Shown: positions 1-29,872 of the stretch, one piece after another
Position numbering within the stretch: position 1 is the first letter of the stretch
How the letters are laid out: every line of letters begins with the position of its first letter
IMG/VR virus record: IMGVR_UViG_3300035156_000094
Location: 1-44,888 of that record
Strand: one strand, 5' to 3'
From: a virus
Length of the DNA stretch: 44,888 bases
Notes under the pieces: model-generated
Told to the model about the DNA's origin: nothing
Seen by the model: only the letters and a program-made list of their open reading frames with translations
Database searches by the model: none
Position numbers and translations under genes: made by a program

Positions 1-127
1 CGCCGTCGCGGCATTGTAGCGCGCGTCGGTTTCGGCATTGGTCAGCCGCACGCGAGCGTCGCGCTGGTCGTTCAGCGCAGCGGTGGCGCGCTTGACGGCT
101 TCTTCCATCTCGGCCTGTCGACCGACC
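1..127. repeat. Terminal overlap copy A, identical to 44762..44888
   Basis: Base-by-base comparison by eye: cgccgtcgcggcattgtagc...cggcctgtcgaccgacc occurs at both ends. It lies inside the tape measure coding frame. Confidence 0.95.
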
Positions 128-15618: not shown

Positions 15619-17129
15619 TCGGCATCCTCCGCGACTACCGTGTAGGCATCGCGCGAGTAAACGTCCTTACCGCCGATCGTCATCATGCCGCCGCCCGAGA
15701 TCGGGACTAGGTGGCCATGCTCGATCAGCACGTCGATCGCGCGCTTCAGCGTCGCCGCCGGCCGCAGGCTCGTCGGCACGACATTGAGGCTCAGCCACCG
15801 CTTGCCGACGACGGGAAGGCCCTTCTTCCGTATCCAGCCGATCAGCGCCTGGGCGTTGTCGTTATCGACATCGGTCGACCCCATGCCAATCATGCGCAGA
15901 GCCTCGGCGACGTAGAACTTCGCCAGCTTGATCCCGGCCGACAGCGCGCGGGCGCTGATCTCGGTGATCTTGGGGTCCTCGAAATAGGCCATCACCGCGG
16001 CAAGGCGGGCGGCGTGCTCCGGTAGCTTCGCAGCAAAGCCTGCGATGTTGTCGAAAGCTCCGTCCGGCTTCAGCTCGATCTCGACCGCGTCGTGCCACTG
16101 TATCCACAAGGCGCGGGCTTCGTCCGAGAACTTGACGACACGCGGCGAAAGCTCGCGCGTTTCCGGGTCCATCGGCATCGGATCGCAGAGCAGCTTGTAA
16201 ACTCGCCCCTGAAACTTCGTTAATTCGACATCGGAATTGACATCGGGATCATGCCACGGCCGGTCACCCTTGAGGGTGATCGGCTGACAAGGCAGCACGC
16301 GGGACAGCAGCCCCTGATCCTTCAGGTCAGGATCGCCGAACAGCTTCGCCGCGATCCGGTGCTGCACCATCAGGTGAAGCGACAGCCGCCGCCCGCGCAG
16401 AATTGTGATCACGTCACCGGCACGCACCCGCTTGATCGGCGCACCATCCCATAGCTTCGACAAGGCGGCGCCGGTCTGTCCGGCGTTCTCGGCGCTCATG
16501 GCGTGACCGCCCAGCCATTGCCCGCCCTCGTCCGAGAACAGCCCCAGCGACGGCATCGCATCGGCGAATAGCTTCTGAAGGCCGGCGAGCGTGCCCTCGT
16601 CGCTGATCAGCATCGGAAGCGGCGGCGGCAGCGGTTCCCGGCCGCAGGCTTCGATCTCGCGCTTGATCGCGAACCGATCCTTATTGCCGGTCGACGCCTT
16701 CTTCCGTGCCGCCGTGTACGCGGCGGAGTCGGCGGCATAGTCCGCGCTCTCCCGCTGCCATGCCTCATGCAGGTCGCGCTCGCGCTGCCGCACGGGATAA
16801 TTGGCGAGCTTGTCGGTCGAGGACTTGCGGTCACCCGACGCCGCCACCGTCACCACGAACAGCGAGGTCGGCACAACCTCCCGCGTCGGTAGCTCGATGT
16901 CGATGTACGGCTGCACCGCCAGCGCCGCGGTCGCGAGGACCGAGTTAGCCGCGATTGACGAGGGCAGCTGCACCTTGTCGACGATCGCGCGCGCCGCCGC
17001 CTGGATGCGCGGGCTTAGCGCTTCGAGCGGATAGACGCCGGGCTCGGCAACGGCCGGCTTGATCGGGATCGGCTGACCGGGGATGCGCTCGGCGTGGTCA
17101 TACTGATCGCTGAAACTGCCGCCGTTCAC
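15615..17129 (-). CDS. DUF3987-type (P4 alpha / YfjI-like) replicative helicase-like protein
   Basis: GTG 17129 overlaps the primase stop (GTGA). Sequence includes ...VTVAASGDRKSSTDKL...LISDEGTLAGLQKLF...LFSDEGGQWLGGHAM.... The N-terminal third of the 850-aa track ORF is out-of-frame overlap with the primase. Confidence 0.7.
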   Translation of the reverse strand: MNGGSFSDQYDHAERIPGQPIPIKPAVAEPGVYPLEALSPRIQAAARAIVDKVQLPSSIAANSVLATAALAVQPYIDIELPTREVVPTSLFVVTVAASGDRKSSTDKLANYPVRQRERDLHEAWQRESADYAADSAAYTAARKKASTGNKDRFAIKREIEACGREPLPPPLPMLISDEGTLAGLQKLFADAMPSLGLFSDEGGQWLGGHAMSAENAGQTGAALSKLWDGAPIKRVRAGDVITILRGRRLSLHLMVQHRIAAKLFGDPDLKDQGLLSRVLPCQPITLKGDRPWHDPDVNSDVELTKFQGRVYKLLCDPMPMDPETRELSPRVVKFSDEARALWIQWHDAVEIELKPDGAFDNIAGFAAKLPEHAARLAAVMAYFEDPKITEISARALSAGIKLAKFYVAEALRMIGMGSTDVDNDNAQALIGWIRKKGLPVVGKRWLSLNVVPTSLRPAATLKRAIDVLIEHGHLVPISGGGMMTIGGKDVYSRDAYTVVAEDAE

Positions 17130-18124
17130 AGCCGAATATCCCGCAGCTGGTCGTTCCAGTCTTTGTAGATCTCGGCGGGATACATGGTCCGCACCACCTT
17201 GCCGCGATCGGTCAGCGCCAGCGCCGCCGCTTGGACGGCGGCACGGCCCGCGGTGTCGTTCTGCCCCGCGATGACGATCGAGGTGACGTGCGGCGGATAC
17301 TGCACCTCGGGCATCATGGCGGTGCCGAGGGTGACCCATACCGCCGCGCCGGGCATCTCCTGGGCGAGGCTCAGCCCGTCCTCGGGTCCTTCGGTCACGA
17401 TGATCTCGACCACGTCGCGATCGACGGCACGACCAAGGCGCAGCGCGCCGCCCTTCACGCGCCCGAGGCTGCGCTTCGGCTTGGCCATGCCAGCCTTGCG
17501 CCGCCCGCCATCGGCGAGGAATATTCGCTGCAACCCGATCAGGCCGGTGGCGTCTGTCACCGCGCCGACCAGCGCCGGCAGATCCGGGCCGCACTCGCCA
17601 GTCTCGTCGTCGTACCAGCTCGGCGTCATCACGAACCGGATGGAGTCGGGCAGCGGTGCCGTGATCCCGCGCGATCGGGCATAGATCTCGGCAGGCGTGC
17701 CCGCCGCCGGGACAGCCTTCGCCCACACCCCAGCGGCGCGATCGATCGCAGCCTGCCGCTCGGCGGCGTCCTCTTCGGCAGCCTTCGCGCGCTCGGCCGG
17801 GTCCACCATCGGCAGGTCGGCGGCACCGAGCCACCGTAGCGCGTCGACAAAGCGCAGCCCCTGCGTCTCCATGACATAGGACACGATGTCGCCGGACTTG
17901 CCGCAGCCGAAACAGTGGAACGTGCCCTTGGCGTCGTTCATCTGCATGCTGGGGCTGCGCTCGGTATGGAACGCGCAGAGCGCCCGCTTCTCGCGCCCGG
18001 CCCGCGTCACCTTCCGGTCGCGCCCGATCACGTCGCTGATGTTGTGGCGATCCTTGGCCTCGTCGACCGCGCGACGGAACTGCGCGTCGCGTTCGGCCCG
18101 GCCTGCCCCCCCGGCCCGGCTCAT
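17126..18124 (-). CDS. DNA primase (CHC2 zinc finger + Toprim)
   Basis: CAFHTERSPSMQMNDAKGTFHCFGCGKSGD is a CHC2 finger. VTEGPEDGLSLAQ and IAGQNDTAG are Toprim acidic motifs. Confidence 0.85.
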   Translation of the reverse strand: MSRAGGAGRAERDAQFRRAVDEAKDRHNISDVIGRDRKVTRAGREKRALCAFHTERSPSMQMNDAKGTFHCFGCGKSGDIVSYVMETQGLRFVDALRWLGAADLPMVDPAERAKAAEEDAAERQAAIDRAAGVWAKAVPAAGTPAEIYARSRGITAPLPDSIRFVMTPSWYDDETGECGPDLPALVGAVTDATGLIGLQRIFLADGGRRKAGMAKPKRSLGRVKGGALRLGRAVDRDVVEIIVTEGPEDGLSLAQEMPGAAVWVTLGTAMMPEVQYPPHVTSIVIAGQNDTAGRAAVQAAALALTDRGKVVRTMYPAEIYKDWNDQLRDIRL

Positions 18125-18327
18125 TCGCCGCTCGCCAGATAGGCGAGCACGTCGGCGGGCAATTCATATTTCAGCCGCCGCACCGCCTCCAATACCGCCG
18201 GCCGGCGCCATGGCGGGATCGACCCGCTCTTCTTCCATGAGAAGACGGTGCCCACGGGGCAGCGCATCTCTTCGGCGATCCGCGACAGGCGCGATCGCTC
18301 GGCGAATAGGTCGGCAACTGGTGACAT
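18121..18327 (-). CDS. Cro-like small HTH protein, first gene of the leftward array
   Basis: 68 aa with an HTH-like segment LSRIAEEMRCPVGTVFSWKKSG. It is divergent from the repressor gene and has an ATGA overlap with the primase. Confidence 0.6.
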   Translation of the reverse strand: MSPVADLFAERSRLSRIAEEMRCPVGTVFSWKKSGSIPPWRRPAVLEAVRRLKYELPADVLAYLASGE

Positions 18328-18368
18328 GCCCCATTTTCGGACATGCCGTCTCGTTCTGCAACATGTAT

Positions 18369-18383
18369 TTCGGATAATCCGAA
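18369..18383. promoter_or_regulatory. Operator-like palindrome TTCGGAT-A-ATCCGAA in the cro/cI divergent region
   Basis: A perfect 7+7 inverted repeat, with an additional TTCGGA half site at 18336-18341. TTGCAG-N17-GAAAAT reads toward the cro-like gene on the minus strand. Confidence 0.6.
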
Positions 18384-18409: not shown

Positions 18410-18982
18410 TTGCAGAGGATGAGCACGATCCGATCAGCAGAAGACATCCTACAGGCGCTCGCCGACGCGAAGGTGCCGAAAGGCGTCATTGCGAAGAAGC
18501 TGGTGATCGCGCCGTCAGCGGTGACCGACCTTTATGCGGGGCGCCGCCAGCTGAAGCACGACGAGGCGCTGCGGTTGCTTGACCTGGTGCCCGATCGGAC
18601 CGCGGGCGCCGAGATCCCGCTGATCGGCCTTGCTGGTGCGGGCAACTGGATCGAGGCGATCGAAGAAACGAAAGAGCGCATTTGGGTCCCGCGCGAGGCG
18701 CATGCAGTCGGGCGTTTCGCAGTCGAGGTCGTCGGGCAGAGCATGAACCTTGTTCTCCCGGAAGGCACCCTCGCGGTGATCAACCCGGAAGACCGCGATC
18801 TGTTCGTCGGCAAGATGTACCTGCTGCGCAACTCCGAGGGCGAGGCGACGATCAAGCGCTACCGCGCCGACCCGGCACGCTTCGAGCCAGTATCGGACGA
18901 CCCGACCTTCGAGGCTTTTTCCGTAGGCTCGTCAGACTTCCGGGTCATCGGAAGGGTCACGTATGCGATGCAGCGTTTCTAA
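18410..18982 (+). CDS. CI/LexA-like repressor (HTH + S24 autopeptidase domain)
   Basis: The C-terminal domain has VVGQSMN (Ser nucleophile) and ATIKRY (Lys). The N-terminal region is HTH-like. The track start is TTG 18410; ATG 18419 is the alternative. Confidence 0.85.
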   Translation: MQRMSTIRSAEDILQALADAKVPKGVIAKKLVIAPSAVTDLYAGRRQLKHDEALRLLDLVPDRTAGAEIPLIGLAGAGNWIEAIEETKERIWVPREAHAVGRFAVEVVGQSMNLVLPEGTLAVINPEDRDLFVGKMYLLRNSEGEATIKRYRADPARFEPVSDDPTFEAFSVGSSDFRVIGRVTYAMQRF

Positions 18983-18999: not shown

Positions 19000-19028
19000 T
19001 TGACACACTTCGGATTTTCCGAAATAAG
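19000..19028 (+). promoter_or_regulatory. Putative early rightward promoter (TTGACA-N17-AATAAG) with an embedded operator TTCGGA-TTT-TCCGAA (19009-19023)
   Basis: The -35 is a perfect TTGACA at 19000-19005. The palindrome, related to the 18369 site, fills the spacer. It lies 110 nt upstream of the first gene of the 15-gene array. Confidence 0.5.
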
Positions 19029-19136
19029 TAAGCGCATCAGCTGACCTGAAGCGCACGTGACTCGGCGCACTCGGCAAGGCTGATGCGCAGGGCGGTCACC
19101 AGCCACCTGCATCACTCATAGCAGGGAGGTTGGCTT

Positions 19137-19370
19137 ATGGCCGCCGATGCAAGCCGCGCACCCTTGGTGCGCGAGACGAAGACTGTTGCCGATCGTCTGC
19201 GGGCCACTTGGGCTCGGATCGAGCCCGGCATCCGCATCCACCGCGACAATTTCATCGAGCGCTGGGACGGCGAAGGGGAAGGCCGCGCAAGCTCGATCGA
19301 CTTTGAGGGCTTTGGCCTCTCGTTCATCCTCTTCATCGGCCGGACGCCGAAGAAGCACGGCGGCGAGTGA
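19137..19370 (+). CDS. Hypothetical protein (77 aa)
   Basis: Strong SD gggagg lies 7 nt before the ATG. It is the first gene of the overlap-coupled array. Confidence 0.65.
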   Translation: MAADASRAPLVRETKTVADRLRATWARIEPGIRIHRDNFIERWDGEGEGRASSIDFEGFGLSFILFIGRTPKKHGGE

Positions 19371-19651
19371 TGGCGAACGTCACCACCACGCACGCCATCG
19401 CCGATCCCTTCGACGCGATCGAGGAAACCGGCTTCGTCTTGGAGCGCATCCGGGCTGTTCTTGACGCGGCTCACGAAGCGCTCGTCGCCGACGTGGTCGA
19501 AGATCCTACGGTCCAGGGCAACGCCAAGGCTCGCGCCTATGACGTTTGGCTGATGGTGAAGCTCGCGACCGACAGCCTGGACCAGGCTCGGACGGTCTTT
19601 GCCCAGGCCTTCGAGGATCTGCCGCGCCCCTTCCCGGTGAAGGCGGCATGA
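19367..19651 (+). CDS. Hypothetical protein (94 aa)
   Basis: GTGATG start region overlaps the upstream stop. Acidic helical composition. Confidence 0.6.
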   Translation: MMANVTTTHAIADPFDAIEETGFVLERIRAVLDAAHEALVADVVEDPTVQGNAKARAYDVWLMVKLATDSLDQARTVFAQAFEDLPRPFPVKAA

Positions 19652-20178
19652 GCGCCGCCGCTCCCCGCATCGCCCGGCCGGTGAACGCGATCACCCTCCC
19701 CCCTGCCCCCATGGCGCTCGCGCGCAGCCACCGCGACGACCTGCGCATCTTCGACGCCGTCCCCGACCACCATGCCGTGATCGCCATGACTGGCGACGGG
19801 TCGGCGCTGCTGCGGCGCGGCGAGGTCGCGGTGTATGACACCGACGCGCACGCGGCCGTCCTGCAGGACGGCGGCTTGTACGTCGTCGAGAGTCAGACGC
19901 CCGCTCATGGCATGCCGGTCGATATGTTCGCGCGCATGCTGCTCGATCGGCGAGCGCCTCGCATGCGGGTGGACCGCTGCGTCCGCCGGCTGGTGCGCTC
20001 CGAGCGGAACCCGGAACACTGGTGGTTCCGGCCGCTGAAGGTGGACGGCGGCGCGATCGGCGGCATCCGGGTCTTCGTCGCCTCCGACGGCCCCTATTGC
20101 GAGATCGATGTCTACGCGAAGGTGATCGGCCGCGTGGTCGGGATCTATAACCCGGCCGCGATCGGCGGTGACGCATGA
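19648..20178 (+). CDS. Hypothetical protein (176 aa)
   Basis: ATGA overlap at 19648-19651. The earlier part of the 210-aa ORF is out of frame with the preceding gene. A resemblance to an S24-like beta-barrel is weak and not asserted. Confidence 0.55.
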   Translation: MSAAAPRIARPVNAITLPPAPMALARSHRDDLRIFDAVPDHHAVIAMTGDGSALLRRGEVAVYDTDAHAAVLQDGGLYVVESQTPAHGMPVDMFARMLLDRRAPRMRVDRCVRRLVRSERNPEHWWFRPLKVDGGAIGGIRVFVASDGPYCEIDVYAKVIGRVVGIYNPAAIGGDA

Positions 20179-20540
20179 GCGCCGATCTGATCGGTCCCGA
20201 CCTGGGGGACGCGCCGCCGCTCGCGCAGCAGCTGGATTGGCTCGATCTCGTCGCGACCACCGGCGAAGACTACGCGGTCATCTTTTTGTCGGTGATGGAT
20301 GATGTCGGGACCGCCCGGCTCTTCATCGATCGCGATGGCGGGGAGCAGATCCTGCTCGGCGTCGCGTGCGACGACCATGCCGAAGAGCGCTCTGCCCGGC
20401 TCGATGCCTTCATGGGGCACCTGCGCAACGCGGGCCACCGCCAGCACGTGATCGACCTGCTGAAGCGCAAGCGTCGTGTCGACGACCAGCGCCCGGCGAT
20501 GCCGATCTTGACCACCGAACACGAAGGGGATCACGCATGA
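20175..20540 (+). CDS. Hypothetical protein (121 aa)
   Basis: ATGA overlaps at both ends. Confidence 0.55.
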   Translation: MSADLIGPDLGDAPPLAQQLDWLDLVATTGEDYAVIFLSVMDDVGTARLFIDRDGGEQILLGVACDDHAEERSARLDAFMGHLRNAGHRQHVIDLLKRKRRVDDQRPAMPILTTEHEGDHA

Positions 20541-21268
20541 TCACCGCCGCCGCCGGACTGCCGCGCGCAGCCTACAATCCCGACAGCCCCGATGCCGCAA
20601 TCCTCGCCGCTTGGGAGATGATCCGCGCTAATCGAGCCATGGTTTACAGCCACGACGGCGAGGAATGGTCGGACGAGCGCGAGGCGATCACCAGCGCTTA
20701 CGACGACGAGCAATATGCCAACGAGGCTTTGATCGAGAAGTCGCAGCCGCGCACGCCGAGCGGCGTAGCGCTGAAGCTGAAGCTCCAAATCACCGGCGAT
20801 TGCGAACGCTGGATCGACTCGACCCTCTGCACGAACGGCGTCGCGGCGCTGCACGCCCGCCGCAGCGAGATGGAGGGGAACGGCGCGATGGTGCTCGATT
20901 GCATCGTCGACCTGATCCGCATCGAGTGGCAGCAGGCGCTTGCCGCATACGACGAGATCGAGGCGCAGCTGACCGCGTTTAACGATCTGTACGCGCTCGT
21001 AGAAGAAAATGAGCACGGCGCCGTTGGCCCCGACGATCTAGCTACCCGGATTGGCACCGCAGCCGAGGCATTTCAGCACCGGATCTGCTCGGCGAGCGCT
21101 GCGGCCATGCGCAGGCTGGTTCGCACCCTCACGCCGGATCGCGACGCGCTGATGCGCAAGCTCGGCCTCCTGCTCGGCGAAGGCTGCGGTGATGACGCCC
21201 CGCTCTGGCTTGCGCGTGACATCAGCTATCTGACCGGGCAGCTCGAAGCGCCGAAGGCGGCGGCGTGA
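20537..21268 (+). CDS. Hypothetical protein (243 aa)
   Basis: ATGA overlap at 20537-20540. Helical, acidic. No motif recognised. Confidence 0.55.
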   Translation: MITAAAGLPRAAYNPDSPDAAILAAWEMIRANRAMVYSHDGEEWSDEREAITSAYDDEQYANEALIEKSQPRTPSGVALKLKLQITGDCERWIDSTLCTNGVAALHARRSEMEGNGAMVLDCIVDLIRIEWQQALAAYDEIEAQLTAFNDLYALVEENEHGAVGPDDLATRIGTAAEAFQHRICSASAAAMRRLVRTLTPDRDALMRKLGLLLGEGCGDDAPLWLARDISYLTGQLEAPKAAA

Positions 21269-22230
21269 CCCAGCCCCTCCACTACACGCCAAAGGCGATG
21301 GCGGACTTGCTCGCGCTCGCCGAGGCATCGCCGCCGGGCATGACGGCAGGGTTCCGCTATCTCGCCGACAAGCTCCGCCAAGCGCAGGTCTTCGTCCTCT
21401 CGGATCATGGGCAGCTGCTCGATCGGGCGAAGCCTCGGCCGCAGGTGCCGGGCGACGTGTTCCGCCCGCCGTTCCCGGTGGTCGCCTTGGAATACACCGC
21501 CTCGACTCGAGAGTGGGCGGACCCCTTCTATAACGGGTCGAAGTGCTCGCGCCGGATCGCCCTCGCTTGGGAGTGGTCAGACGATCTGCCGCCGATCCTG
21601 CGCGCGTTCCCCTGCGCCGACCTGGGCGCTGGGGTCGTGGTCGCAGCGCTCGCGTTCTATGACGAGCAGGACCATTGGCTGCCGGTTGCCGCCGCCATGC
21701 ACCTCGACTTTGAGGAAACTTGGAACGACGCGCCAGCGCCCTCGCCTTTCCGCGAGGCGATGATCAAGGCGGGCCGGATCTCCAAGGCGGTCGAGAAGGA
21801 ACCCGGCCTCGCCAGCTCGCCCATCGCGCTGATGCCGGAAGCGATCGAGGCGATAGCCGCGCGCATGGGCGCCGCCGCCACGATCGACGCGATCTGCGCC
21901 GACATGATGGACGAGGTAAACGCCTATACCGACCTCTGCTACGCGCTCGCGTGCGGCAACGTCGGCACCAGCCGCGTGACCGCGCCGCCGGCTCTGAACA
22001 AGAAGCGGATCAAGGCGGGCAAGCTGCCCCTTCGTGACTTCCACGTCCTCGAACTCGCGGGCGGAGGCGTCCTGCCCGGCGCCAGCGACCACGGGGGCGG
22101 CGATCGGGCTGCGCCTCGATCCCACCTGCGCCGCGGCCATATCCGCCGCCTGGGGCCGGAACGCATCACCTGGGTCAATTCGGCGATCGTCCGCGGTCGC
22201 GGCTTCATCGACAAGGTCTACGCCGCATGA
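21265..22230 (+). CDS. Hypothetical protein (321 aa)
   Basis: GTGA overlap at 21265-21268. It is the largest ORF of the early array. No motif recognised. Confidence 0.6.
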   Translation: MTQPLHYTPKAMADLLALAEASPPGMTAGFRYLADKLRQAQVFVLSDHGQLLDRAKPRPQVPGDVFRPPFPVVALEYTASTREWADPFYNGSKCSRRIALAWEWSDDLPPILRAFPCADLGAGVVVAALAFYDEQDHWLPVAAAMHLDFEETWNDAPAPSPFREAMIKAGRISKAVEKEPGLASSPIALMPEAIEAIAARMGAAATIDAICADMMDEVNAYTDLCYALACGNVGTSRVTAPPALNKKRIKAGKLPLRDFHVLELAGGGVLPGASDHGGGDRAAPRSHLRRGHIRRLGPERITWVNSAIVRGRGFIDKVYAA

Positions 22231-22520
22231 CGCCGCCGGATTATCTCGGCACCTGCGAGACGTGCGCATGGTGGACCCGCGAGCCCGAGCTGGCGAACGC
22301 ACTTCGCCGGCCGGACGGCTCCGCCAGCGATCTCGGCGTTTGTCAGGTCAATGCCCCTGTCGTGGTCGGCACCGGCGGCTTCCGCATGTCAGTGTTCCCC
22401 GAGGTTCGCGCCCACCGCTTTTGCAGCCGGTGGGAGCCCGAGGACGAGGGCGGCGATGGTGGTGACGGGGGCGGCGGCGAGGAAGTCACGAACGTCGTGC
22501 CGCTTCGAGGTGCAGCGTGA
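22227..22520 (+). CDS. Small Cys-containing protein (97 aa) with a Gly/Asp-rich tail
   Basis: ATGA overlap. Sequence CETCAWW...GVCQ...FCSRW. Confidence 0.5.
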   Translation: MTPPDYLGTCETCAWWTREPELANALRRPDGSASDLGVCQVNAPVVVGTGGFRMSVFPEVRAHRFCSRWEPEDEGGDGGDGGGGEEVTNVVPLRGAA

Positions 22521-22903
22521 GGATCGGGCCGGGACACCCCCCTGCGGTGCGGGATGCGCTTGCCGCCGCCGCTGCCAACCTCGACGCCGTCGAGGCGGAG
22601 TGGAAAGGCTCGGCAGGCCCATGCCATAATTGCGAGTTTGGATCTCGGAAGGGCATAAACGCCACCTATTGCAAGCATCCGGCGGCACGGCGGGCGCTGT
22701 TCGACCCGGTCAAAGATCAGCTAGTCTGGATCGAGAAAGAGCAGCGGGTCCTGCGCCGCGACGGCGAACTATGCGGGCCGAGTGGATCACTGTTCCGCCC
22801 GCTGCCGTTGCTGGTCGCTGTCCGCCGTTGGATCGCTGCGAACTGGTGGTGGATGATCTGGGTCGCTGTCTTGGCGCAAGCCGTTTGGTCGGCAGGGTCA
22901 TGA
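22517..22903 (+). CDS. Hypothetical protein with a C-terminal transmembrane segment (128 aa)
   Basis: GTGA overlap. The C-terminus LPLLVAVRRWIAANWWWMIWVAVLAQAVW is hydrophobic. Confidence 0.5.
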   Translation: MRIGPGHPPAVRDALAAAAANLDAVEAEWKGSAGPCHNCEFGSRKGINATYCKHPAARRALFDPVKDQLVWIEKEQRVLRRDGELCGPSGSLFRPLPLLVAVRRWIAANWWWMIWVAVLAQAVWSAGS

Positions 22904-23223
22904 TCGACCTGTTCCGCTATCCCGGAACACCGGGATCAAAGGACCGCGACACGTCGCACGCCGCCGCCGATCAGATCGCCGAAGCGGCACCGCAGCTGCG
23001 CGCCCGTGCGCTGGCGGTGGTCGAGCGATCGAACGGCATGACCGCCGACGAGGTCGCCGGCCGGCTGGGGATCTCGATCTTGAGCATCCGTCCGCGACTG
23101 ACCGAACTCGCCCGCCTGGGGAAGGTTCGCGACAGCGGCGTGCGGCGGAAGAACGTGAGCGGTCGCCGGGCGATCGTTTGGTCGCCGGTCTACCCGGCCA
23201 AGCTGAAGGGACAACGAACATGA
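22900..23223 (+). CDS. Winged-helix (MarR-like) DNA-binding protein (107 aa)
   Basis: ATGA overlap at 22900-22903. MTADEVAGRLGISILSIRPRLTELARLGKVRDSG is wHTH-like. Confidence 0.6.
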   Translation: MIDLFRYPGTPGSKDRDTSHAAADQIAEAAPQLRARALAVVERSNGMTADEVAGRLGISILSIRPRLTELARLGKVRDSGVRRKNVSGRRAIVWSPVYPAKLKGQRT

Positions 23224-23558
23224 CGCGCCGACTAATGATGCTCGCCGCCAGCTACGTGACGGTCGTGCTTCTAGCCGCGTTTGGCGTCTGCCTCGCCGAA
23301 GGTCGCTCGATCGGCGACGCTGTATGGTGGGCGGTCGTTACCGCGACGACCGTCGGATATGGCGACGTTTACCCGACGACCGCCGCCGGTCGGATCATCG
23401 CGGCGACGCTGATGCACGCCACGACCCTGATGCTCCTGCCGATCTTGACCGCCGAGATCGCCGCCAAGCTGATCGTGAACAGCGACGCCTTCACGCACGG
23501 CGAGCAGGAAGAAATCAAACAGCTGCTGCGCGACTTGGCCGCGAAGGTGAAGGCATGA
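23220..23558 (+). CDS. Minimal 2-TM KcsA-like potassium channel (112 aa)
   Basis: It carries the canonical K+ selectivity filter TATTVGYGD. The pore region [25 protein letters not shown] closely parallels KcsA [25 protein letters not shown]. Hydrophobic TM1 and TM2 flank it, and a short helical C-terminal tail follows. Confidence 0.85.
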   Translation: [112 protein letters not shown]

Positions 23559-23752
23559 GCACGCTATCGCCCTGGACGATCGCGGGGTGGCTGATCGTCG
23601 CGATCCTCGCGACGATGATGCTGGTGACGCCGATCATCGCGATCTTGATCATCCGGCAGCGTCGCAAGATGCTCGCCGACTTCGAGCGCCGTCGCGCGCA
23701 GATCCGGGACGAGATCGCACCCCTCAATCGCCGGTGGAGGTTCCGCCCATGA
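23555..23752 (+). CDS. Single-pass membrane protein (65 aa)
   Basis: ATGA overlap with the channel gene. TIAGWLIVAILATMMLVTPIIAILII is followed by a basic stretch. Confidence 0.55.
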   Translation: MSTLSPWTIAGWLIVAILATMMLVTPIIAILIIRQRRKMLADFERRRAQIRDEIAPLNRRWRFRP

Positions 23753-23949
23753 GCGCGATCGACCCGCTGCGCGAGCCGCAGCCGCCGCGCGAGGATCTGC
23801 CCGCATCCGTCCGAGCTATGGTGGAGGTATGGCAGGCGGCGGCGCTGGTCGCGGGCGACATCGCCCACGCCAAGCGCTCGATGTACCTCGCCTATGTCGC
23901 CGAGGGCTTCACCGAGGCGCAGGCGCTCGAACTGGCGAGGCACCTATGA
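23749..23949 (+). CDS. Hypothetical protein (66 aa)
   Basis: ATGA overlaps at both ends. Confidence 0.5.
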   Translation: MSAIDPLREPQPPREDLPASVRAMVEVWQAAALVAGDIAHAKRSMYLAYVAEGFTEAQALELARHL

Positions 23950-24146
23950 CGGCGGCGATCGACATGAAGGCGTTTCGCGGCGCCTTCCTGATCCACCAAT
24001 CGACCGCGCCGCGGGCTCGTCACCAGTCGTTCAGCGCCGCCGAGGCGGAAGCCGCCCGGCTGCTCGAAGCGAACCCCGACGCCAGTTTCATCATCAGCCA
24101 GGAGGTCGCGCGCGTGAAGCGTGGCCCGCAGGGAGCCCGATCGTGA
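23946..24146 (+). CDS. Hypothetical protein (66 aa)
   Basis: ATGA overlap upstream and GTGA overlap downstream. Confidence 0.5.
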   Translation: MTAAIDMKAFRGAFLIHQSTAPRARHQSFSAAEAEAARLLEANPDASFIISQEVARVKRGPQGARS

Positions 24147-24328
24147 CCTTTGTTCAAATGATCATAGCCGCATGGTTCACCAGCGAGATTGTCGCGCACG
24201 AAGACTGGGCGCATCGCGGCCTCGCCTTCGCAATCGCCGCCGTATGGTGGTGGATCACCTCCCGCGACGCCATCCCCGACGCGATCGAGCGCGGCCTCGA
24301 AAACTTCGCCCGGAAGCACCGCCGATGA
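24143..24328 (+). CDS. Small membrane protein (61 aa, two hydrophobic segments)
   Basis: GTGA overlap. Hydrophobic segments FVQMIIAAWFTSEIV and GLAFAIAAVWWWI. Confidence 0.5.
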   Translation: MTFVQMIIAAWFTSEIVAHEDWAHRGLAFAIAAVWWWITSRDAIPDAIERGLENFARKHRR

Positions 24329-24582
24329 CCAAGAAGACCGCCAAGCCGTCCGCCGCCGCCGCGCCGGTCGAGAAGCGAGCTCCATCTGTCGAGGCGGAGG
24401 ATCGGCTGCTGAAGATCGGCGAGGTCAAGGATCTCGTCGGCCTGGGCAAGACCATGATCTACCGCAAGGTGAAGGACGGCACCTTCCCCCAGCCGTGCAA
24501 GCCGGGTGGTGCCGCTACCCGGTGGAGCGAGCGCGAGGTCCGCGCTTGGCGCGATGAGGTGCTGGCGGCTCGCGCCGCCTAG
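24325..24582 (+). CDS. AlpA-family DNA-binding protein (excisionase / regulator-like)
   Basis: LLKIGEVKDLVGLGKTMIYRKVKDGTFPQP...RWSEREVRAW is the AlpA/Xis-type HTH pattern. It lies immediately next to the integrase gene. Confidence 0.8.
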   Translation: MTKKTAKPSAAAAPVEKRAPSVEAEDRLLKIGEVKDLVGLGKTMIYRKVKDGTFPQPCKPGGAATRWSEREVRAWRDEVLAARAA

Positions 24583-24584
24583 CC

Positions 24585-25934
24585 TCACGCGGCGAGCTGC
24601 TTTCGCGGAGCCTTCGGCGACGTGTCCGCCCAGCGGATCGGCTGCCCGATGTGGCTTTCGAGGGTCGGCAGATCGACGACGAGCAGGTCACCCCATGCCT
24701 GGGCGATCTCCCGCCGCCGGGGCATGTACGCCGCCCGGTTGTACGCGCCCTCGACCTTGTCCTTCGGCATATGCGCCAGCATCAGATCGATCACGGCCCG
24801 GTCGCCCTCTTGGCGGTCGGGCCGTTCGTTCATGATCGTCGAAAAGGCGGCGCGGAAGCCGTGCGGGACGTGCCGCTGATAGTAGCCGGCGCGGATCAGC
24901 AGCGCGCGCAGCGTGTTCTCGGAGATCGGCCGGTGGACGTGGCGCTCGCTCGGGAACATCAGGCGGTAGCCGCCGGTCAGCGGCTTCAGCGCGCGGATCA
25001 CGTCGACCGCATGGCTCGACAGCGGCACGACATGGTCGCCCTGTTCCTCGGCCTTGCGGTCCTGATCGCCCTTCATGCGCGCCGCCGGGATGCGCCAGAG
25101 CGGCGCGGGACCGTCGAGCCCCTCGATCTCGCTCCACTCGGCGTTCTGGATCTCGTTCGGCCGCACCGCCGTCAGCGCGAGCAGCCGCAGCGCGAACTTC
25201 GTCGCCGCCCGGCAGCGCTCGGCCTCGCAATCGCCGAGCATGGTACGCACCGCCGCCAGCTGGCGGTCGTGATCGTCGATCCGATCGATGATCGAGGGCT
25301 GTTTCTTCGACCGCGGCTTCTTCGGGAGCGCCTTGCCGAGGCTCGCCGCCGGGTCCGCCTTCGCGATACCAGTCGCGATACCATAGACGAATATGTCCGA
25401 GATCCGCTGGCGGATGCGGTGGGCCGTCTCGATCGCCCCGCGCTGCACGACCGCGTTGAGCAGCTCTAGCACCTTGGGCGACTCGATCGCGGTCATCGGC
25501 AGATCCCCGATCGACGGGAACACCGAGTTTTCCAGGCTGATCAGCACGTCGGCGCCGTGAACCGTCGACCACGTCGGCAAGCGCAGGGTATGCCACCGCC
25601 GCGCCACGATCTCGAAGGTGTTGTCGCTGGCGGTCGCGTTCGCCTTCAGGGCGACGCGTCGCTCGATCGCCGGGTCGCGACCGTCGCGCAGCAGATCCTT
25701 CGCCTCGTCGCGCCGCCGCCGAGCATCGAGCAGCGACAGCGATGGATAGGGGCCGAAGGTTAGGGTCTTCTGCGCTGGCTTGCCCGCCGCGTTCTTCCCG
25801 TAGGCGTAATTCATTCGCCAGATGCGGCCACCGGCCGGGGTGACGTGAAGGTAGAGCTGCCCTGCATCGACCAGCTTGTAGGCGGCGTCGCGGGGCTTTG
25901 CGGCTTTGATCTTGGCGTCTGTCAGCACGTCCAT
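24585..25934 (-). CDS. int: Tyrosine integrase, P4-type (DUF4102 N-terminal arm-binding domain)
   Basis: MDVLTDAKIKAAKPRDAAYKLVDAGQLYLHVTPAGGRIWRMNY is the typical P4-like N-terminus. The C-terminal catalytic region has HGFRAAFST and LAHMPKDKVEGAYNR (His/Arg/Tyr). An alternative ATG lies at 25946. The track ORF extends to 26036. Confidence 0.9.
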   Translation of the reverse strand: MDVLTDAKIKAAKPRDAAYKLVDAGQLYLHVTPAGGRIWRMNYAYGKNAAGKPAQKTLTFGPYPSLSLLDARRRRDEAKDLLRDGRDPAIERRVALKANATASDNTFEIVARRWHTLRLPTWSTVHGADVLISLENSVFPSIGDLPMTAIESPKVLELLNAVVQRGAIETAHRIRQRISDIFVYGIATGIAKADPAASLGKALPKKPRSKKQPSIIDRIDDHDRQLAAVRTMLGDCEAERCRAATKFALRLLALTAVRPNEIQNAEWSEIEGLDGPAPLWRIPAARMKGDQDRKAEEQGDHVVPLSSHAVDVIRALKPLTGGYRLMFPSERHVHRPISENTLRALLIRAGYYQRHVPHGFRAAFSTIMNERPDRQEGDRAVIDLMLAHMPKDKVEGAYNRAAYMPRRREIAQAWGDLLVVDLPTLESHIGQPIRWADTSPKAPRKQLAA

Positions 25935-25938
25935 CTCC

Positions 25939-26190
25939 GATACCATGCGGCGCCGGGCTCGATACCATGCGCCATACCATGTCATTCGGTGAACGCCTGC
26001 GAACATGTGCGGAACACCGTCCGCCGCATCAAGCACGAAAAGTGCCTGTTTACTAGGGGGAGTGAACCGTTACGGCCTTCTGCGTATGGTATGTTGGCGG
26101 AGCGGGAGCCCGTCCAATCAACCGGTTTCTGCGTTGAGATTGCCGGGTTTTTTCCGCGCCGCCGCCGATCATACCACGCAATATACCATG
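25939..26190. promoter_or_regulatory. Putative attP region with repeated ATACCA(T/C)G motifs (candidate arm-type sites)
   Basis: GATACCATGCG occurs at 25939 and 25961, and CATACCATG at 25973. An inverted copy (cataccatacgc) lies at 26082-26093, with ATACCACGCA at 26171 and ATACCATGCG at 26183. TTCTGCGT is repeated at 26078 and 26127, and a T6 run lies at 26148-26153. The roughly 300-bp gap next to int is non-coding and AT-richer. Confidence 0.5.
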
Positions 26191-26236: not shown

Positions 26237-26608
26237 CTACTCGGCGGCGGCAAGGTCGGAGCCTGCGCAGTCCAGGCTGATGCGCATGACGAGCCCAAGC
26301 GTGGCCCCCTCCATGTGGAGCCCCTTCACCCGCTCGACGATCACCTGGGCGGAATAGCCGCGGTCGAGCTTCGACGCGATCCAGCCGGATCGCTCCCGGC
26401 CAAGGTAGCCGACCTTCACCCCCCGGCTCGTCACGATCGCGACCGCGAGGTGATCGTGCGGGTTGTCCGGCTCGCGGACGAACTCAAGCCCGTCGCCCGG
26501 CATGCACTGGCGCAGCTCGTCCTGCCGGCTGCTGCCATCATCGTTCTCGTACCAACACCCGACAGCTGCGAGGCTGAAGTCATTCCATCCCAAGCGACTC
26601 GACCCCAT
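26237..26608 (-). CDS. Standalone HIRAN-domain protein (about 123 aa)
   Basis: GDGLEFVREPDNPHDHLAVAIVTSRGVKVGYLGRERSGWIASKLDRG matches the HIRAN pattern (REPxNPxDxxAI...G.lGYl). The start is uncertain: ATG 26608 has no clear SD, and the track start at 26722 would overlap the divergent gene. Confidence 0.65.
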   Translation of the reverse strand: MGSSRLGWNDFSLAAVGCWYENDDGSSRQDELRQCMPGDGLEFVREPDNPHDHLAVAIVTSRGVKVGYLGRERSGWIASKLDRGYSAQVIVERVKGLHMEGATLGLVMRISLDCAGSDLAAAE

Positions 26609-26670
26609 GTAGAACAAACGCGGAACATGGCGTACGGATGAGTCGACCGAGTCGGCAAGAGGGATTGAGA

Positions 26671-26907
26671 ATGACAGGTGATCAGGAACGGTACGTCGCC
26701 ACGCGGCCGGCGTTCGGCGCATGGCTGCTACAGCAGAGCACCGGCGGGTTCGTCGGCGAGCTGATCGCCGCCGGCCGCGCCGACCGCGCCTTCCCTAAGA
26801 GCGGGGATGCCGAGGCGGTGCGGAAGCGGCTTCGCGAGATGCAGGCGCCGGGCGAGTATTTTGACGCGGTGGACGAGGCGGAGGCCGACTGGCGTGCGGC
26901 TGAATAG
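26671..26907 (+). CDS. YozE/SAM-like-fold small protein (78 aa)
   Basis: SD agaggga lies 6 nt before ATG 26671. FGAWLLQQSTGGFVGELIAAGRADRAFPKSGD resembles the YozE-type pattern. Confidence 0.5.
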   Translation: MTGDQERYVATRPAFGAWLLQQSTGGFVGELIAAGRADRAFPKSGDAEAVRKRLREMQAPGEYFDAVDEAEADWRAAE

Positions 26908-27247
26908 GCGCGACCCGGTCGACCTGGGCAGCGGGCTCGTCCGTGAATACTTCCCGGAGCGCACCAGCCATCGTGCGCCACGACAGGAGCCAAAGCCGGC
27001 GGAGCATCGCGGCGCGATCGACAAGCGCGAGGCGGACCCCCGCAAGGCGCTGGCGTCGCACGTCGAGCCCGGCCGGGTTGGCTATGCAGCGCTGTCCCGC
27101 ATGCTCGGGCGTGCCGACCACTACCTCTGGCGCTTCGTGCGTCACGGCTCGCCGCGGGCGCTACAGCCCGACGATCACCGCCGCTTGGCCGACTTCTTCG
27201 GTGTCGACGAGCGCGCGCTAGGCGTGCGCGATCTGTGGCATGGCTGA
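26894..27247 (+). CDS. XRE-type HTH regulator (about 117 aa)
   Basis: GYAALSRMLGRADHYLWRFVRHGSPRALQPDDHRRLADFFGV is Cro/C1-type HTH-like. The start is uncertain: GTG 26894 is in frame. Confidence 0.5.
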   Translation: MRLNRRDPVDLGSGLVREYFPERTSHRAPRQEPKPAEHRGAIDKREADPRKALASHVEPGRVGYAALSRMLGRADHYLWRFVRHGSPRALQPDDHRRLADFFGVDERALGVRDLWHG

Positions 27248-27443
27248 GCGCTGCCGCCTATGCACCGCGAACGATCGCGACGGCGTGATCGAGCAGCTGG
27301 CGGCGGACCTATGGAATAGCCGCCGACATGGCACTCTGGACGACCACCCATGGGAGCAGGCTGGCGACTATTGGCAGCGCATGTTCCGCGAGCTGGCAGT
27401 GACCGCGGTCGGCTCTCTCGCGCACGATGAGCATCCGCGATGA
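27240..27443 (+). CDS. Hypothetical protein (67 aa)
   Basis: ORF in a co-directional array. It overlaps its neighbours by a few nt. Confidence 0.45.
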   Translation: MAERCRLCTANDRDGVIEQLAADLWNSRRHGTLDDHPWEQAGDYWQRMFRELAVTAVGSLAHDEHPR

Positions 27444-27694
27444 GGCGCGTCACCCGAGCCGAGATGCGAACGAAGCTGGCTGTCGCTCTAACAGTCCGCA
27501 AGCAACACACCCGCCGCGGGCTGGCGCTGATCACCGAGCACGAGATCAACGACGTGGTCGACGATCTGCTGAACCGCATCAAGGGGCGTCCCGAAAGCGA
27601 GGCGGTGATCCTAGAGCCGGATCTGGCTGGTCCTGCGCACGCGCCTTGGCGGGGAAGATGGGATATAGACGAACCCCACCCTTTCCCTAAGTAG
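27440..27694 (+). CDS. Hypothetical protein (84 aa)
   Basis: ATGA overlap with the preceding ORF. Confidence 0.45.
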   Translation: MRRVTRAEMRTKLAVALTVRKQHTRRGLALITEHEINDVVDDLLNRIKGRPESEAVILEPDLAGPAHAPWRGRWDIDEPHPFPK

Positions 27695-27699
27695 CGCGC

Positions 27700-27954
27700 A
27701 TGTCCGACGACGATGAACTCCCCGGAGACAGTCCGTGGCGCCTTGGCAAGGTCGTGCTCGACGACATGCAGGTATCGCAGGATGCAGCGGACTTCCTCGC
27801 AATCCACGGCACCGACAGCGTCGAACTGTGGACGGAGCTAAAGTCGATATTCACGAACATGCCGCCGGGCCGGATCGACCTGATGCTTCATTGGGAGGCC
27901 GTTGCCGATCGCATCCAAGAGATGGCGGCGGCGCAGCAGAAGCCGAGGAACTGA
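27700..27954 (+). CDS. Hypothetical acidic protein (84 aa)
   Basis: ATG 27700. Its stop is 1 nt from the convergent stop at 27956. Confidence 0.5.
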   Translation: MSDDDELPGDSPWRLGKVVLDDMQVSQDAADFLAIHGTDSVELWTELKSIFTNMPPGRIDLMLHWEAVADRIQEMAAAQQKPRN

Positions 27955-27955
27955 C

Positions 27956-28819
27956 CTAGTCGGGTAGGTCGATCACGTCGTGGAAAGCCATGATCCGGTA
28001 AGCGACCGGGCGGTCGGATAGCATCTCGACGTTCACGTCAACGTCGAACGCCTTCTTGTAGACGTTGTCGTCGGCCTCGGCGATCTCATGGCGGATGCGT
28101 TCTTCTGCCAGGGTCGAAGCGTAGACGATCGGCAGGGACCGAGGGTGGATAGCTTCAATCTTGACCTGCTCGCCTGACCTCTTGCCCGCCTTGGCATGCG
28201 CGACGTTCGTGCGGGTGAAGACCATGAGCACCCGCGGGTGGTCCGCGTCGGTAGTCTTTTCAAGCGCGAGCTTATGGTCGAGGATGCGTGCCTCGGCCTG
28301 CCGCGCCTCCGTTGTGTCAAACGCAAACGCGACCTTTAGATCCTTGTCCTCAAACACCGACATCGAGAGCCGCGCATCGTTGTCGGTCGCGACCGCTGTC
28401 AGGGTCTTAAGGTAGTCGTTTAGATCGCTCTTCTTCGCAGTTTCGTCTCGCTGCCCTCGCTTGAAATACTTCTTCAGACCGAGGTTCTCGACGAACTTGG
28501 CCAGATCATTTGCGTGCTTCACGCCCGCCATTGCCGCGCCGAGAAGTGGCGGTCCTGCGACCATGAAATAAGGCACCAGCGTCGCGATGATTGAGCCGGC
28601 CCGAACCTCTTGCACATAGAAGCGAGCGTCGCCCCGGTCGTCGGGATGCTCGCCGTTGGCGAACCGCTCGAACTGGTTGCCGATCCCGACGAACAGGGCG
28701 ATGAAGCTGCTCAACTCGACCGGAGTTTCCGTCTCCAATTTGAGGACGATGTGCTGACCTGCCGGGTGATCCATAGGCGCGGCATATGGATAGAAGGCGG
28801 AACTGAAAGCAAGCCGCAT
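27956..28819 (-). CDS. Unknown 287-aa protein paired with the methyltransferase (candidate restriction / defence effector)
   Basis: SD gaagg precedes ATG 28819, 16 nt after the MTase stop on the same strand. G+C is lower (hand-sampled lines about 52-58%). No family recognised. A possible D-X9-E-D-K segment lies in NDARLSMSVFEDKDLK. Confidence 0.6.
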   Translation of the reverse strand: MRLAFSSAFYPYAAPMDHPAGQHIVLKLETETPVELSSFIALFVGIGNQFERFANGEHPDDRGDARFYVQEVRAGSIIATLVPYFMVAGPPLLGAAMAGVKHANDLAKFVENLGLKKYFKRGQRDETAKKSDLNDYLKTLTAVATDNDARLSMSVFEDKDLKVAFAFDTTEARQAEARILDHKLALEKTTDADHPRVLMVFTRTNVAHAKAGKRSGEQVKIEAIHPRSLPIVYASTLAEERIRHEIAEADDNVYKKAFDVDVNVEMLSDRPVAYRIMAFHDVIDLPD

Positions 28820-28834
28820 GTTCCGCCTTCCCTA

Positions 28835-29638
28835 TCAGTTGCGGACGATCAGCTCGCCCGCGCGCAGCCCGCCGCCGCTCGGCGTGCCGATCGTATAGGT
28901 CGTTTCCACCTCGTCGAGCTGGAACCGGCCGAACACCTCGCGGGCGCCGGGCGTGTCATTGATCGACAGGATGAAGCATCCGGTGATCCCGCCCAGCTGG
29001 TCGGCAAGCTGCGCGAAGTCGGCACGCGAGAACGTCCCGGCGCCGTAGTCCTCCTCGCAGCCCCAATAGGGCGGATCGAGGTAGAACAGCGTCGTCGGGC
29101 TGTCATAGCGCCGGATCAGATCGGCGTAGGGCAAACGCTCGATCTTCACGCCCGCAAGGCGGTCGTGAATTTCCTCGAGCATCGGCGCCAGCTTGGTCAC
29201 GTCGAACCGTGCAGGCGAACGCCAGTCAACGCCAAAGGTGCGCCCGTCGACCTTGCCCCCGAATGTCAGGCGCTGAAGGTAGAGGAACCGGGCGGCGCGT
29301 TCGAGGTCGGTCAGCGTGTCGGGATCGACCGCCACCAGGCGCTCGAACTCGGCCCGGCTGGTCAGCTGCCACTTCAGCATATCCATGAACGCCTGATAGT
29401 GGCGCTGAAGGATGCGGAAGAGGGTCGTCACGTCTCGGGAAAGATCGTTGATCACCTCGGCACGTGGCCGGCGGGATCGGCGCAGGAACACCCCTCCCAT
29501 GCCGACGAAGGGCTCGACATAGTTGTCGTGCGGGGTGGCCTCGATCAGGGCGCAGAGGCGGCGCGCGAGATTGCGCTTGCCGCCGATGTAGGGCGCAGCC
29601 GGGGATACCGGCCGAACCTCAGTTTGAGTCGACTCCAT
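28835..29638 (-). CDS. N6-adenine DNA methyltransferase, D12 (Dam-like) class
   Basis: APYIGGKRNLA..., EPFVGMGGVF (AdoMet motif I) and FYLDPPYW (catalytic DPPY) are present. Confidence 0.9.
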   Translation of the reverse strand: MESTQTEVRPVSPAAPYIGGKRNLARRLCALIEATPHDNYVEPFVGMGGVFLRRSRRPRAEVINDLSRDVTTLFRILQRHYQAFMDMLKWQLTSRAEFERLVAVDPDTLTDLERAARFLYLQRLTFGGKVDGRTFGVDWRSPARFDVTKLAPMLEEIHDRLAGVKIERLPYADLIRRYDSPTTLFYLDPPYWGCEEDYGAGTFSRADFAQLADQLGGITGCFILSINDTPGAREVFGRFQLDEVETTYTIGTPSGGGLRAGELIVRN

Positions 29639-29872
29639 AGCTTTCAGGTCTCAATAGGACCCCGCCTGTTGCGCAGGTGCGGGGCGTTAGCGGCTGGCCA
29701 GCCGCGCGTAACGGGGTCCTCCCCCGTTGGTTGCTGGGTAGCCGCCCAGCACCCCCGCTCGGCCTATCGGCCGGCGGACGTGTTCGAGATGAGGATTAAA
29801 CGATCAGAGCCGGGCGGACCATCATCGCGCTAGGCAAGGCTTCGGCGACCACCGCGGAAGCTATCGTGTCGC

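Follow-up and report, generated by a model that had tools for sequence, protein, structure and literature searches.

The virus record IMGVR_UViG_3300035156_000094 of the IMG/VR collection is a DNA stretch of 44,888 nucleotides (nt), hereafter called the window, that represents the complete genome of a temperate tailed phage. On its plus strand, at positions 23220..23558, it encodes a potassium channel of 112 amino acids (aa) with two transmembrane (TM) segments that is reduced to the pore and contains no known sensor domain. The gene is located inside an early operon that looks repressor-controlled, in agreement with an initial annotation of the sequence. Its product is very probably a functional K+ channel. 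That it is moreover expressed early and serves to manipulate the K+ content or the membrane potential of the host is the account that we favour on balance, though with distinctly less assurance.

The open reading frame (ORF) extends from an ATG at 23220 to a TGA at 23556-23558, and its 112-aa translation contains the exact K+ selectivity filter TATTVGYGD, as the initial annotation had stated. The 112-aa start is preferred over a TTG start that would give 126 aa and over the 107-aa version called in the JGI annotation, where the gene is also named a potassium channel, because in the alignment most of the closest homologs start there as well, with MTRRL. Pfam, PHROG, the Protein Data Bank (PDB), an AlphaFold2 (AF2) model and hydropathy all lead to the same identity, and the match to K+ channel families is far beyond chance. 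In a profile search of the Ion_trans_2 type, which had been proposed as a check, PF07885 was matched over residues 13-83 with 54 bits for a cut-off of 22.5 (E=1.6e-14). Sequence matches in the PDB were obtained with the KvLm pore (4h33), KvAP and KcsA at E values of 1e-11 to 1e-9, and BLASTP gave 48% identity with KcsA over 61 residues (E=3e-14).

Structural evidence points in the same direction. Hydropathy on the Kyte-Doolittle (KD) scale delineates two TM segments at residues 4-31 and 59-86. The AF2 model, a monomer prediction built on 32 homologs, comprises helices at residues 3-27, 31-42, 55-85 and 93-111 with a mean predicted local distance difference test score (pLDDT) of 91, and it agrees with hydropathy on the two TM helices that had previously been described and also shows the short helical tail. 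In Foldseek alignments of about 93 columns with KcsA and the KvLm pore, the model reached target-normalised TM-scores of 0.70-0.80, at a root-mean-square deviation of 2.2-2.8 A. The protein is thus made of TM1 (about residues 4-27), a pore helix (31-42), the filter (T43-T-V-G-Y-G-D49), TM2 (55-85), a conserved tail motif (84-100) and a C-terminal helix (93-111). That the phage encodes a pore-only channel of the KcsA fold, as first proposed, is a point on which Pfam, the PDB, AF2 and Foldseek agree.

In the alignment of the 32 homologs, pore helix and filter are invariant at residues 36-49. Every invariant column of the family is kept in the phage protein, including W36, W37, T44, G46, Y47, G48 and D49, and this copy is therefore not degenerate. 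The inner-helix proline P74 is present in all but six of the aligned rows. Like the pores of KcsA, KvAP and KvLm, the channel displays the filter TTVGYGD, the WW aromatic cuff and a GR after the filter. Pore helix and filter had been described as nearly superimposable on those of KcsA; this is correct for the fold, but the protein is closer to KvAP and KvLm. A valine stands at the position of KcsA E71, as in KvAP and unlike in KcsA, so that inactivation of the KcsA E71-D80 type is not expected. Other differences from KcsA are the absence of a glycine at the G99 hinge, with P74 at the position of the PVP kink of Kv channels, a very short turret and a different tail motif. The N-terminus consists of four residues and the pH-sensor residue H25 of KcsA therefore has no counterpart. 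The C-terminal helix could bundle as in full-length KcsA (3eff was aligned over 116 columns). By homology with these proteins, the channel is predicted to assemble as a homotetrameric K+-selective pore of the KcsA/KvAP type and to conduct K+.

The statement of the initial annotation that there is no gating domain is too strong, because the subfamily carries a conserved cytoplasmic tail element. Immediately after TM2, the acidic motif LIV(N/D)xDAFTH(D/E)EQEEIK is strongly conserved across the 32-homolog alignment and is followed by an amphipathic helix. The motif as a subfamily feature is our own definition, derived from this alignment. It was also found in phage phiK7A1 and, as the divergent form NNDAWTDSEQESLK, in phage Myrna. 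When a tail-only profile was run against 1.84 billion representatives, 204 clusters were obtained, nearly all of 110-215 aa and with the motif directly after a two-TM pore. The tail may work as a gate, as a sensor of pH or cations, or as a bundle for assembly or tetramerisation like the KcsA C-terminus. In two homologs, P0121 and P0181, the motif (N/D)xFTHxEQEE(I/V)K plus the helix is duplicated in tandem, which suggests that the tail is a discrete structural or functional unit. In addition, a distant member of the subfamily, P0258 (404 aa), is fused to an N-terminal Mrr_N domain and about 200 residues of unknown fold. Mrr_N domains are typical of restriction-type proteins, and the fusion hints that the same pore can be used as the effector of a DNA-sensing, defence-like protein.

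Along its full length, the channel is matched by the profile of PHROG 14690 (E=2.9e-33; residues 5-111 against profile positions 11-117 of 122), a family that includes gp260 of Mycobacterium phage Myrna. A tblastn search of GenBank phages recovered five of 50,697 records, namely phiK7A1, two of Myrna and two of Phabba. Relatives are encoded on at least 273 IMG/VR stretches and on at least 545 stretches of species-representative genomes, including Micromonosporaceae, Caulobacter and Sphingomonas. The PHROG 14690 proteins, all from tailed phages (Myrna gp260, Phabba, phiK7A1 gp155 or ventosus type; catalogued in PMC6163359), resemble the channel in their size of 112-120 aa, their two TM segments and pore loop, and their common tail (N/D)xDA(F/W)T(H/D)xEQE(E/S)(I/L)K. 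Nevertheless, the channel is only 36-47% identical to the Myrna, Phabba and phiK7A1 proteins but 58-65% identical to cellular genes. Its filter is the canonical TATTVGYGD and not SSTGYGD as in Myrna or SLTIGYGD as in phiK7A1, its temperate phage has a genome of 44.8 kb compared with about 164 kb for Myrna and Phabba and 99 kb for phiK7A1, and it is set in a repressor-controlled early operon.

Channels of the Kcv type from chloroviruses and other algal viruses are also viral, miniature and pore-only, with a canonical filter, and have in common with the phage channel the idea that host K+ conductance is changed by a virus. However, no kinship beyond the generic pore was found, since matches to algal and giant viruses in BFVD had E values of 0.025 or higher and 13-24% identity. 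The best viral structural match in this database, and the only strong one, is a 114-aa 'potassium channel domain containing protein' from an uncultured tailed phage. Kcv is thought to act from the internal membrane of the virion at entry. Tailed phages have no internal membrane and this phage possesses a capsid, portal and tape-measure module; the channel must therefore act after its synthesis in the infected cell, unlike Kcv.

Potassium channel genes in bacteriophages have been known since 2018, when Greiner et al. described them in phages of Mycobacterium, Vibrio, Acinetobacter, Pseudomonas, Streptomyces and Lactobacillus (PMC6163359). The authors called any function of these channels speculative and argued that their sporadic occurrence suggests a non-essential gene. 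Their existence was noted again in 2020 (PMC7650704), and no functional study of any phage K+ channel was found in the literature. The novelty attributed to the gene in the initial annotation has to be reduced accordingly: the class had been catalogued in 2018 and is represented both in PHROG 14690 and in the JGI annotation, but it is correct that no physiological role has been established. On present evidence, the channel is an additional member of a catalogued class and not new biology.

The host of the phage is almost certainly a Sphingomonas, because its large terminase (TerL) shares 78-83% identity with terminases from prophages of Sphingomonas faeni and of several other Sphingomonas strains. 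In this genome, the channel gene belongs to an early operon resembling the PL operon of lambda and made of about 15 mostly overlapping genes (19137..24582, plus strand), the scaffold of which is kept in seven related phages. As read earlier, the gene is coupled to both of its neighbours by ATGA overlaps, one joining its start to the upstream stop (23220-23223) and the other its stop to the downstream start (23555-23558). ATGA or GTGA coupling is also present at 21265, 22227, 22517, 22900, 23749, 23946, 24143 and 24325, giving a chain that runs at least from 21265 to 24582. Due to this unbroken coupling to conserved operon genes, there is no room for a terminator of the channel's own. The operon ends with an AlpA/excisionase-like gene (24325-24582; AlpA Pfam E=5.6e-11) and converges with the gene of a tyrosine integrase with a P4-type arm-binding domain (24585..26036, minus strand).

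Upstream of the operon lies the gene for an autocleavable S24 repressor of the LexA/cI type (190 aa, 18410..18982, plus strand; Peptidase_S24 E=7.5e-17, with a weak lexA match). It is divergent from the gene for a small Cro-like helix-turn-helix (HTH) protein of 68 aa (18124..18327, minus strand), which was recognised by a weak HTH_23 match and by its position. In the 155-bp gap that separates the repressor gene from the operon, a promoter-like site TTGACA-17 nt-AATAAG (19000..19028, plus strand) combines a perfect TTGACA at 19000-19005 with AATAAG at 19023-28, and the palindrome TTCGGATTTTCCGAA is found in its spacer at 19009-19023. A second operator copy, TTCGGATAATCCGAA, at 18369..18383 abuts a minus-strand promoter-like site (18409-18382) that would drive the cro-like/primase/structural operon. 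The 15-nt palindrome TTCGGAnnnTCCGAA occurs exactly twice in 44.9 kb for 0.08 expected, none of 100 shuffles reached two, and a weaker copy is present at 18335-18348. It is absent from the related phages, as expected from the divergence of their repressors. In the related phage L182, whose repressor is 58% identical, a different operator-like element is found in mirrored copies on either side of the repressor gene (3086-3133 and 3704-3751). The repressor gene therefore looks flanked by two operator-controlled lytic promoters, of which the downstream one would serve a PL-type operon ending in an excision gene. Because the palindrome of the cro/repressor switch overlaps the promoter-like site before the operon, the best reading of the sequence is that early lytic expression of the channel is more likely than lysogenic expression.

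Regarding its origin, a search of 5.8 billion proteins returned the window's own contig as the only 100% match, and the next protein was 65% identical. Three homologs with 58-64% identity were inspected in their context on long contigs, and all of them lie among housekeeping genes: LepA and an amino-acid permease for the first, ThiG, DHquinase and glutamine synthetase for the second, and DXP synthase, PnuC and the puh photosynthesis cluster for the third. These are alphaproteobacterial chromosomal genes. More generally, the chromosomal two-TM channels of Alphaproteobacteria and Micromonosporaceae, annotated as 'potassium channel family protein', are 46-65% identical to the phage channel over its whole length and have the same filter, inner-helix proline and tail motif, and most of the closest ones the same MTRRL start. 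The chromosomal copies usually possess 10-50 extra C-terminal residues, whereas in the phage copy little follows the amphipathic helix. Channels of this type are the probable source of the phage gene, which was probably captured from an alphaproteobacterial, host-like chromosome. A compositional test for recent transfer detected no GC anomaly at the channel gene; there is no codon anomaly either, and the GC content at third codon positions (GC3) matches that of the phage.

Seven related phages, found by an alignment-based query, share the same scaffold, in which the repressor gene is followed by homologs of the genes at 21265 (o21265) and 22227 (o22227), a variable slot, the AlpA gene and the convergent integrase gene. 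Searches of IMG/VR and of metagenome contigs with the single protein o21265 had given no relatives. The integrases of the related phages are up to 80% identical to that of the window, and in L176 the TerL and the capsid protein are 76% and 72% identical. All seven lack the channel gene. In L183 and L184, a copy of the gene upstream of the channel (77-78% identical) is followed directly by the homolog of the gene at 23946, without a channel, and other relatives carry the homolog of the gene at 23749. The segment unique to the window consists of the channel gene and the gene for a 65-aa protein, at 23220-23752. The slot between the homologs of o22227 and of the genes at 23749 or 23946 is hypervariable among these Sphingomonas phages, with different small genes in each phage (window 22520-23749; L176 2266-3536; L177 2266-2667; L183 5966-6731; L184 6229-6549). 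As none of the seven phages with the same scaffold carries the gene, the channel is a lineage-specific cargo of this slot. The initial annotation held that a filter not conserved in related phages would refute its proposal. The filter is indeed missing there, but trivially, as the whole gene is lacking; this shows the gene to be dispensable for this type of phage without showing it to be non-functional.

No support was obtained for a conserved module formed by the channel and its direct neighbours. The upstream gene (22900..23223, plus strand) encodes a 107-aa protein that had been called a winged-helix protein. It is a solid member of PHROG 1123 and resembles winged helix-turn-helix (wHTH) proteins, but all its Pfam wHTH matches are below the cut-off; it also has weak matches to a Ren-like exclusion PHROG and to CARF-associated wHTH models. 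Although ATGA-coupled to the channel gene, it is not channel-specific. Downstream (23555..23752, plus strand), the 65-aa orphan protein is strongly predicted to be a single-pass membrane protein, as described before (KD19 maximum 2.79 over residues 4-35). It has no homolog except itself among the 5.8 billion proteins and is absent from the related phages, so that comparative evidence gives no basis for calling it an auxiliary subunit. Within the variable slot, 22517..22903 (plus strand) encodes a 128-aa protein of unknown function whose C-terminus is hydrophobic and rich in Trp; tblastn gave no match to it in any of the seven relatives L182-L188. This protein and that of 24143-24328 had been presented as membrane proteins, but they contain only sub-threshold hydrophobic Trp-rich segments with KD19 maxima of 1.31 and 1.23 and are not confirmed as such. 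The suggestion that the wHTH-like and small membrane proteins belong with the channel is not upheld, given that relatives carry the wHTH gene without a channel. Furthermore, tblastn of all window neighbours against 164 channel-homolog loci found none of them, and a conserved cassette of wHTH, channel and TM protein was rejected on this basis.

From these observations, a sequence of events can be proposed. A temperate Sphingomonas phage would have captured the channel gene from an alphaproteobacterial chromosome, and this gene and that of the orphan 65-aa protein would have been inserted together into the hypervariable slot of the repressor-controlled early operon. Made soon after infection or induction, the channel would enter the inner membrane of the host and raise its K+ conductance. 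The membrane potential would then be pulled towards the K+ equilibrium potential, with a net K+ uptake or loss set by external K+. One possible benefit is that K+ content and turgor would be restored or controlled after the K+ efflux that accompanies DNA entry, sustaining macromolecular synthesis during lytic growth. The other is that an altered membrane potential may impede the DNA entry of later-arriving phages, and depolarisation was shown to reduce the efficiency of lambda DNA entry (PMC10274716). Either benefit or both may apply.

Several points weigh against this proposal. The plus-strand promoter-like site at 19000..19028 was read by eye; the consensus scan omitted it because the last base of its -10 hexamer is not T. 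No terminator is predicted between the repressor gene and the operon, so that lysogenic read-through is possible. Another promoter-like site, at 22601-22630 inside 22517-22903, could give independent expression of the channel. The argument for conductance, selectivity and tetramerisation is one of homology. In addition, the effect of the channel is not predictable from sequence, since the direction of K+ flow depends on external K+. The host-capture scenario is drawn from three genomic contexts. Finally, the absence of the gene in seven of seven relatives makes it dispensable for this type of phage and possibly a near-neutral cargo.

Some of these points would fit a defence function expressed in the lysogen, in which the channel, alone or with the 65-aa or the wHTH-like protein, would collapse the membrane potential upon attack in a Rex-like manner or constitutively block DNA entry. 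The lambda cI-rexA-rexB arrangement is comparable in that an ion-conducting membrane protein is encoded near the repressor gene and in the same orientation, and in that the repressor gene lies between two operator regions. The missing terminator, the promoter-like site just upstream of the cassette, the nature of the cassette as variable cargo, which is usual for prophage defence genes, the Mrr_N fusion of P0258 and the Ren-like and CARF-associated matches of the wHTH neighbour all go in this direction. On the other hand, the channel is unrelated to RexB in sequence, has no RexA-like partner and, unlike the genes of the cI-rex transcript, is found about 4 kb downstream, past the operator-bearing promoter-like site, in what corresponds to the PL operon. 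This site separates the repressor gene from the operon and disfavours the Rex-like interpretation put forward initially. The cassette is coupled to conserved early genes and shares its operon with AlpA, which is expected to be off in the lysogen. Moreover, the internal promoter-like site is within chance, two such sites being found for 0.8 +/- 0.7 expected. PADLOC returned no defence-system match for the channel, no sensor partner co-occurs with it across the 164 loci, and the wHTH protein occurs without it. Defence in the lysogen is therefore unlikely, while early lytic expression accounts better for the operator and the coupling.

A more elaborate version of the early-expression account is that the channel and the 65-aa protein constitute a two-component early switch that resets membrane potential and K+, thereby excluding superinfecting phages or tuning the lysis-lysogeny decision, with the acidic tail DAFTHxEQEEIK acting as a cytoplasmic gate, for example as a sensor of pH, divalent cations or a partner. 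We regard it as speculative and rather doubtful. If it were true, a K+ channel of a bacteriophage would for the first time have a demonstrated physiological role, and a gating module new to minimal K+ channels would be defined.

It is also conceivable, but improbable, that the channel is a passenger, namely a recently captured host gene that is tolerated in the hypervariable slot with little or no role, or that no longer conducts. Its absence in the related phages, the lack of any phage copy closer than 65% identity among the 5.8 billion proteins and the sporadic occurrence taken to suggest non-essentiality (PMC6163359) are in line with this possibility. Against it, all invariant and nearly invariant residues are intact, including those of the tail motif, the coupling of the frame to the two neighbouring genes is exact, GC3 matches that of the phage, and the family recurs in many unrelated phages, which argues for selection.

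Holins fire on depolarisation, and a channel that alters the proton-motive force could thus trigger or delay holin firing; the 65-aa protein is superficially holin- or antiholin-like in size and topology. Such a role in lysis timing, also raised by the initial annotation, is very improbable: the channel lies in the early operon near excisionase and integrase genes and not beside a muralytic or late gene, no endolysin or spanin adjacency and no holin family match was found for its locus (the neighbours are the wHTH-like gene, small ORFans, AlpA and the integrase), the 65-aa protein matches no holin family in Pfam or PHROG, and the structural similarity of the channel model to phage holins is without significance (E>1, TM-score about 0.3). 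No lysis cassette was identified in the phage genome.

The value of this channel lies in the setting that it offers. Related genes are present on hundreds of viral contigs in the present analysis and none has a demonstrated function. The window provides a clean experimental example, with a canonical filter in 112 aa, a small temperate phage of the culturable genus Sphingomonas and a regulation that can be interpreted, and channel-less relatives with the same operon scaffold act as natural 'knock-outs'. It could be used as a model to ask what phages gain from manipulating the K+ conductance of the host, be it homeostasis of K+ and turgor once the DNA is injected, exclusion of superinfecting phages or a part in decision-making. 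What is added here is the regulatory and evolutionary context, that is the repressor-controlled early operon, the cargo slot and the probable host origin, as well as a conserved tail motif, here defined for the subfamily. This motif, duplicated in some members, is an uncharacterised element of interest to channel biophysics.

Homologs were also encountered in other genomic contexts. In four other phage-like, unclassified metagenomic contigs, the channel is part of long arrays of small genes that all point in one direction and match no family, beside RecT and a DUF3799 exonuclease in L173, near Tad2-like and GSP synthetase genes in L178, beside a LemA protein in L181, and in the L179/L180 type, which recurs across 27 contigs in many samples. 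Like the operon of the window, these arrays have the appearance of early or accessory regions. In L178, the gene of a Tad2-like (anti-Thoeris) protein (1717-2184) lies in the same array as a 61% identical, short-tailed channel, as would fit a region for early counter-defence or host takeover. In Myrna (L174 158404-159653) and Phabba, the channel homolog is directly beside a PRPP synthetase. In the same way, it is found beside NMNAT-Nudix and NAMPT in an uncultured phage (L171 8919-12080) and beside PnuC and a NadR-like kinase on an alphaproteobacterial chromosome (L172 9310-11025). A link to NAD salvage as a general feature was nevertheless rejected, as tblastn of those genes gave no match in 160 further loci.

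As for the remainder of the window, its first 127 nt (1..127) are identical to the last (44762-44888), forming an exact terminal repeat, and a minus-strand gene of 1,708 aa is continuous across the junction (from 2469 through the junction to 42104). This identifies the contig as a circular assembly that closes at 44,761 bp. Its artificial ends cut through the 1,708-aa gene, which probably encodes the tape measure protein. Plus-strand ORFs at 160-1926 and 2047-2901 were rejected as genes; they are antisense shadows of the 1,708-aa gene, and GC is highest at codon position 1. A megablast of 25 kb of the window against GenBank phages gave no DNA-level match.

The minus strand encodes the cro-like HTH protein, a primase, a DUF3987 helicase, an HNH protein, the small and large terminases, the portal, a ClpP-like protease, the major capsid protein, head-completion and connector proteins, tail-fibre proteins, an O-acetyltransferase, a D12 methylase, a HIRAN protein and the tyrosine integrase. 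The plus strand carries the repressor gene followed by the small genes of the early operon up to AlpA. Between this repressor gene and the first gene of the operon, the leader downstream of the promoter-like site contains a perfect 10-bp inverted repeat (19032-19041 and 19079-19088, GCGCATCAGC and GCTGATGCGC, with a 37-nt loop). It is not an intrinsic terminator because it lacks a T-run.

A block beside the integrase gene (26237-30961, minus strand) encodes the HIRAN protein, two proteins of unknown function, the D12 adenine methyltransferase and the O-acetyltransferase, which is of the O-antigen-acetylase type. These look like lysogenic-conversion or anti-restriction genes, and the O-acetyltransferase would offer a more conventional means of excluding superinfecting phages, through receptor modification. 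Lastly, on the minus strand, the 850-aa DUF3987 ORF and the ORF of the primase, which has Zn-ribbon and Toprim domains, overlap by about 1 kb in different frames (15615-18167 and 17126-18124). The N-terminal third of the 850-aa ORF is probably spurious, and the helicase probably starts near 17129.

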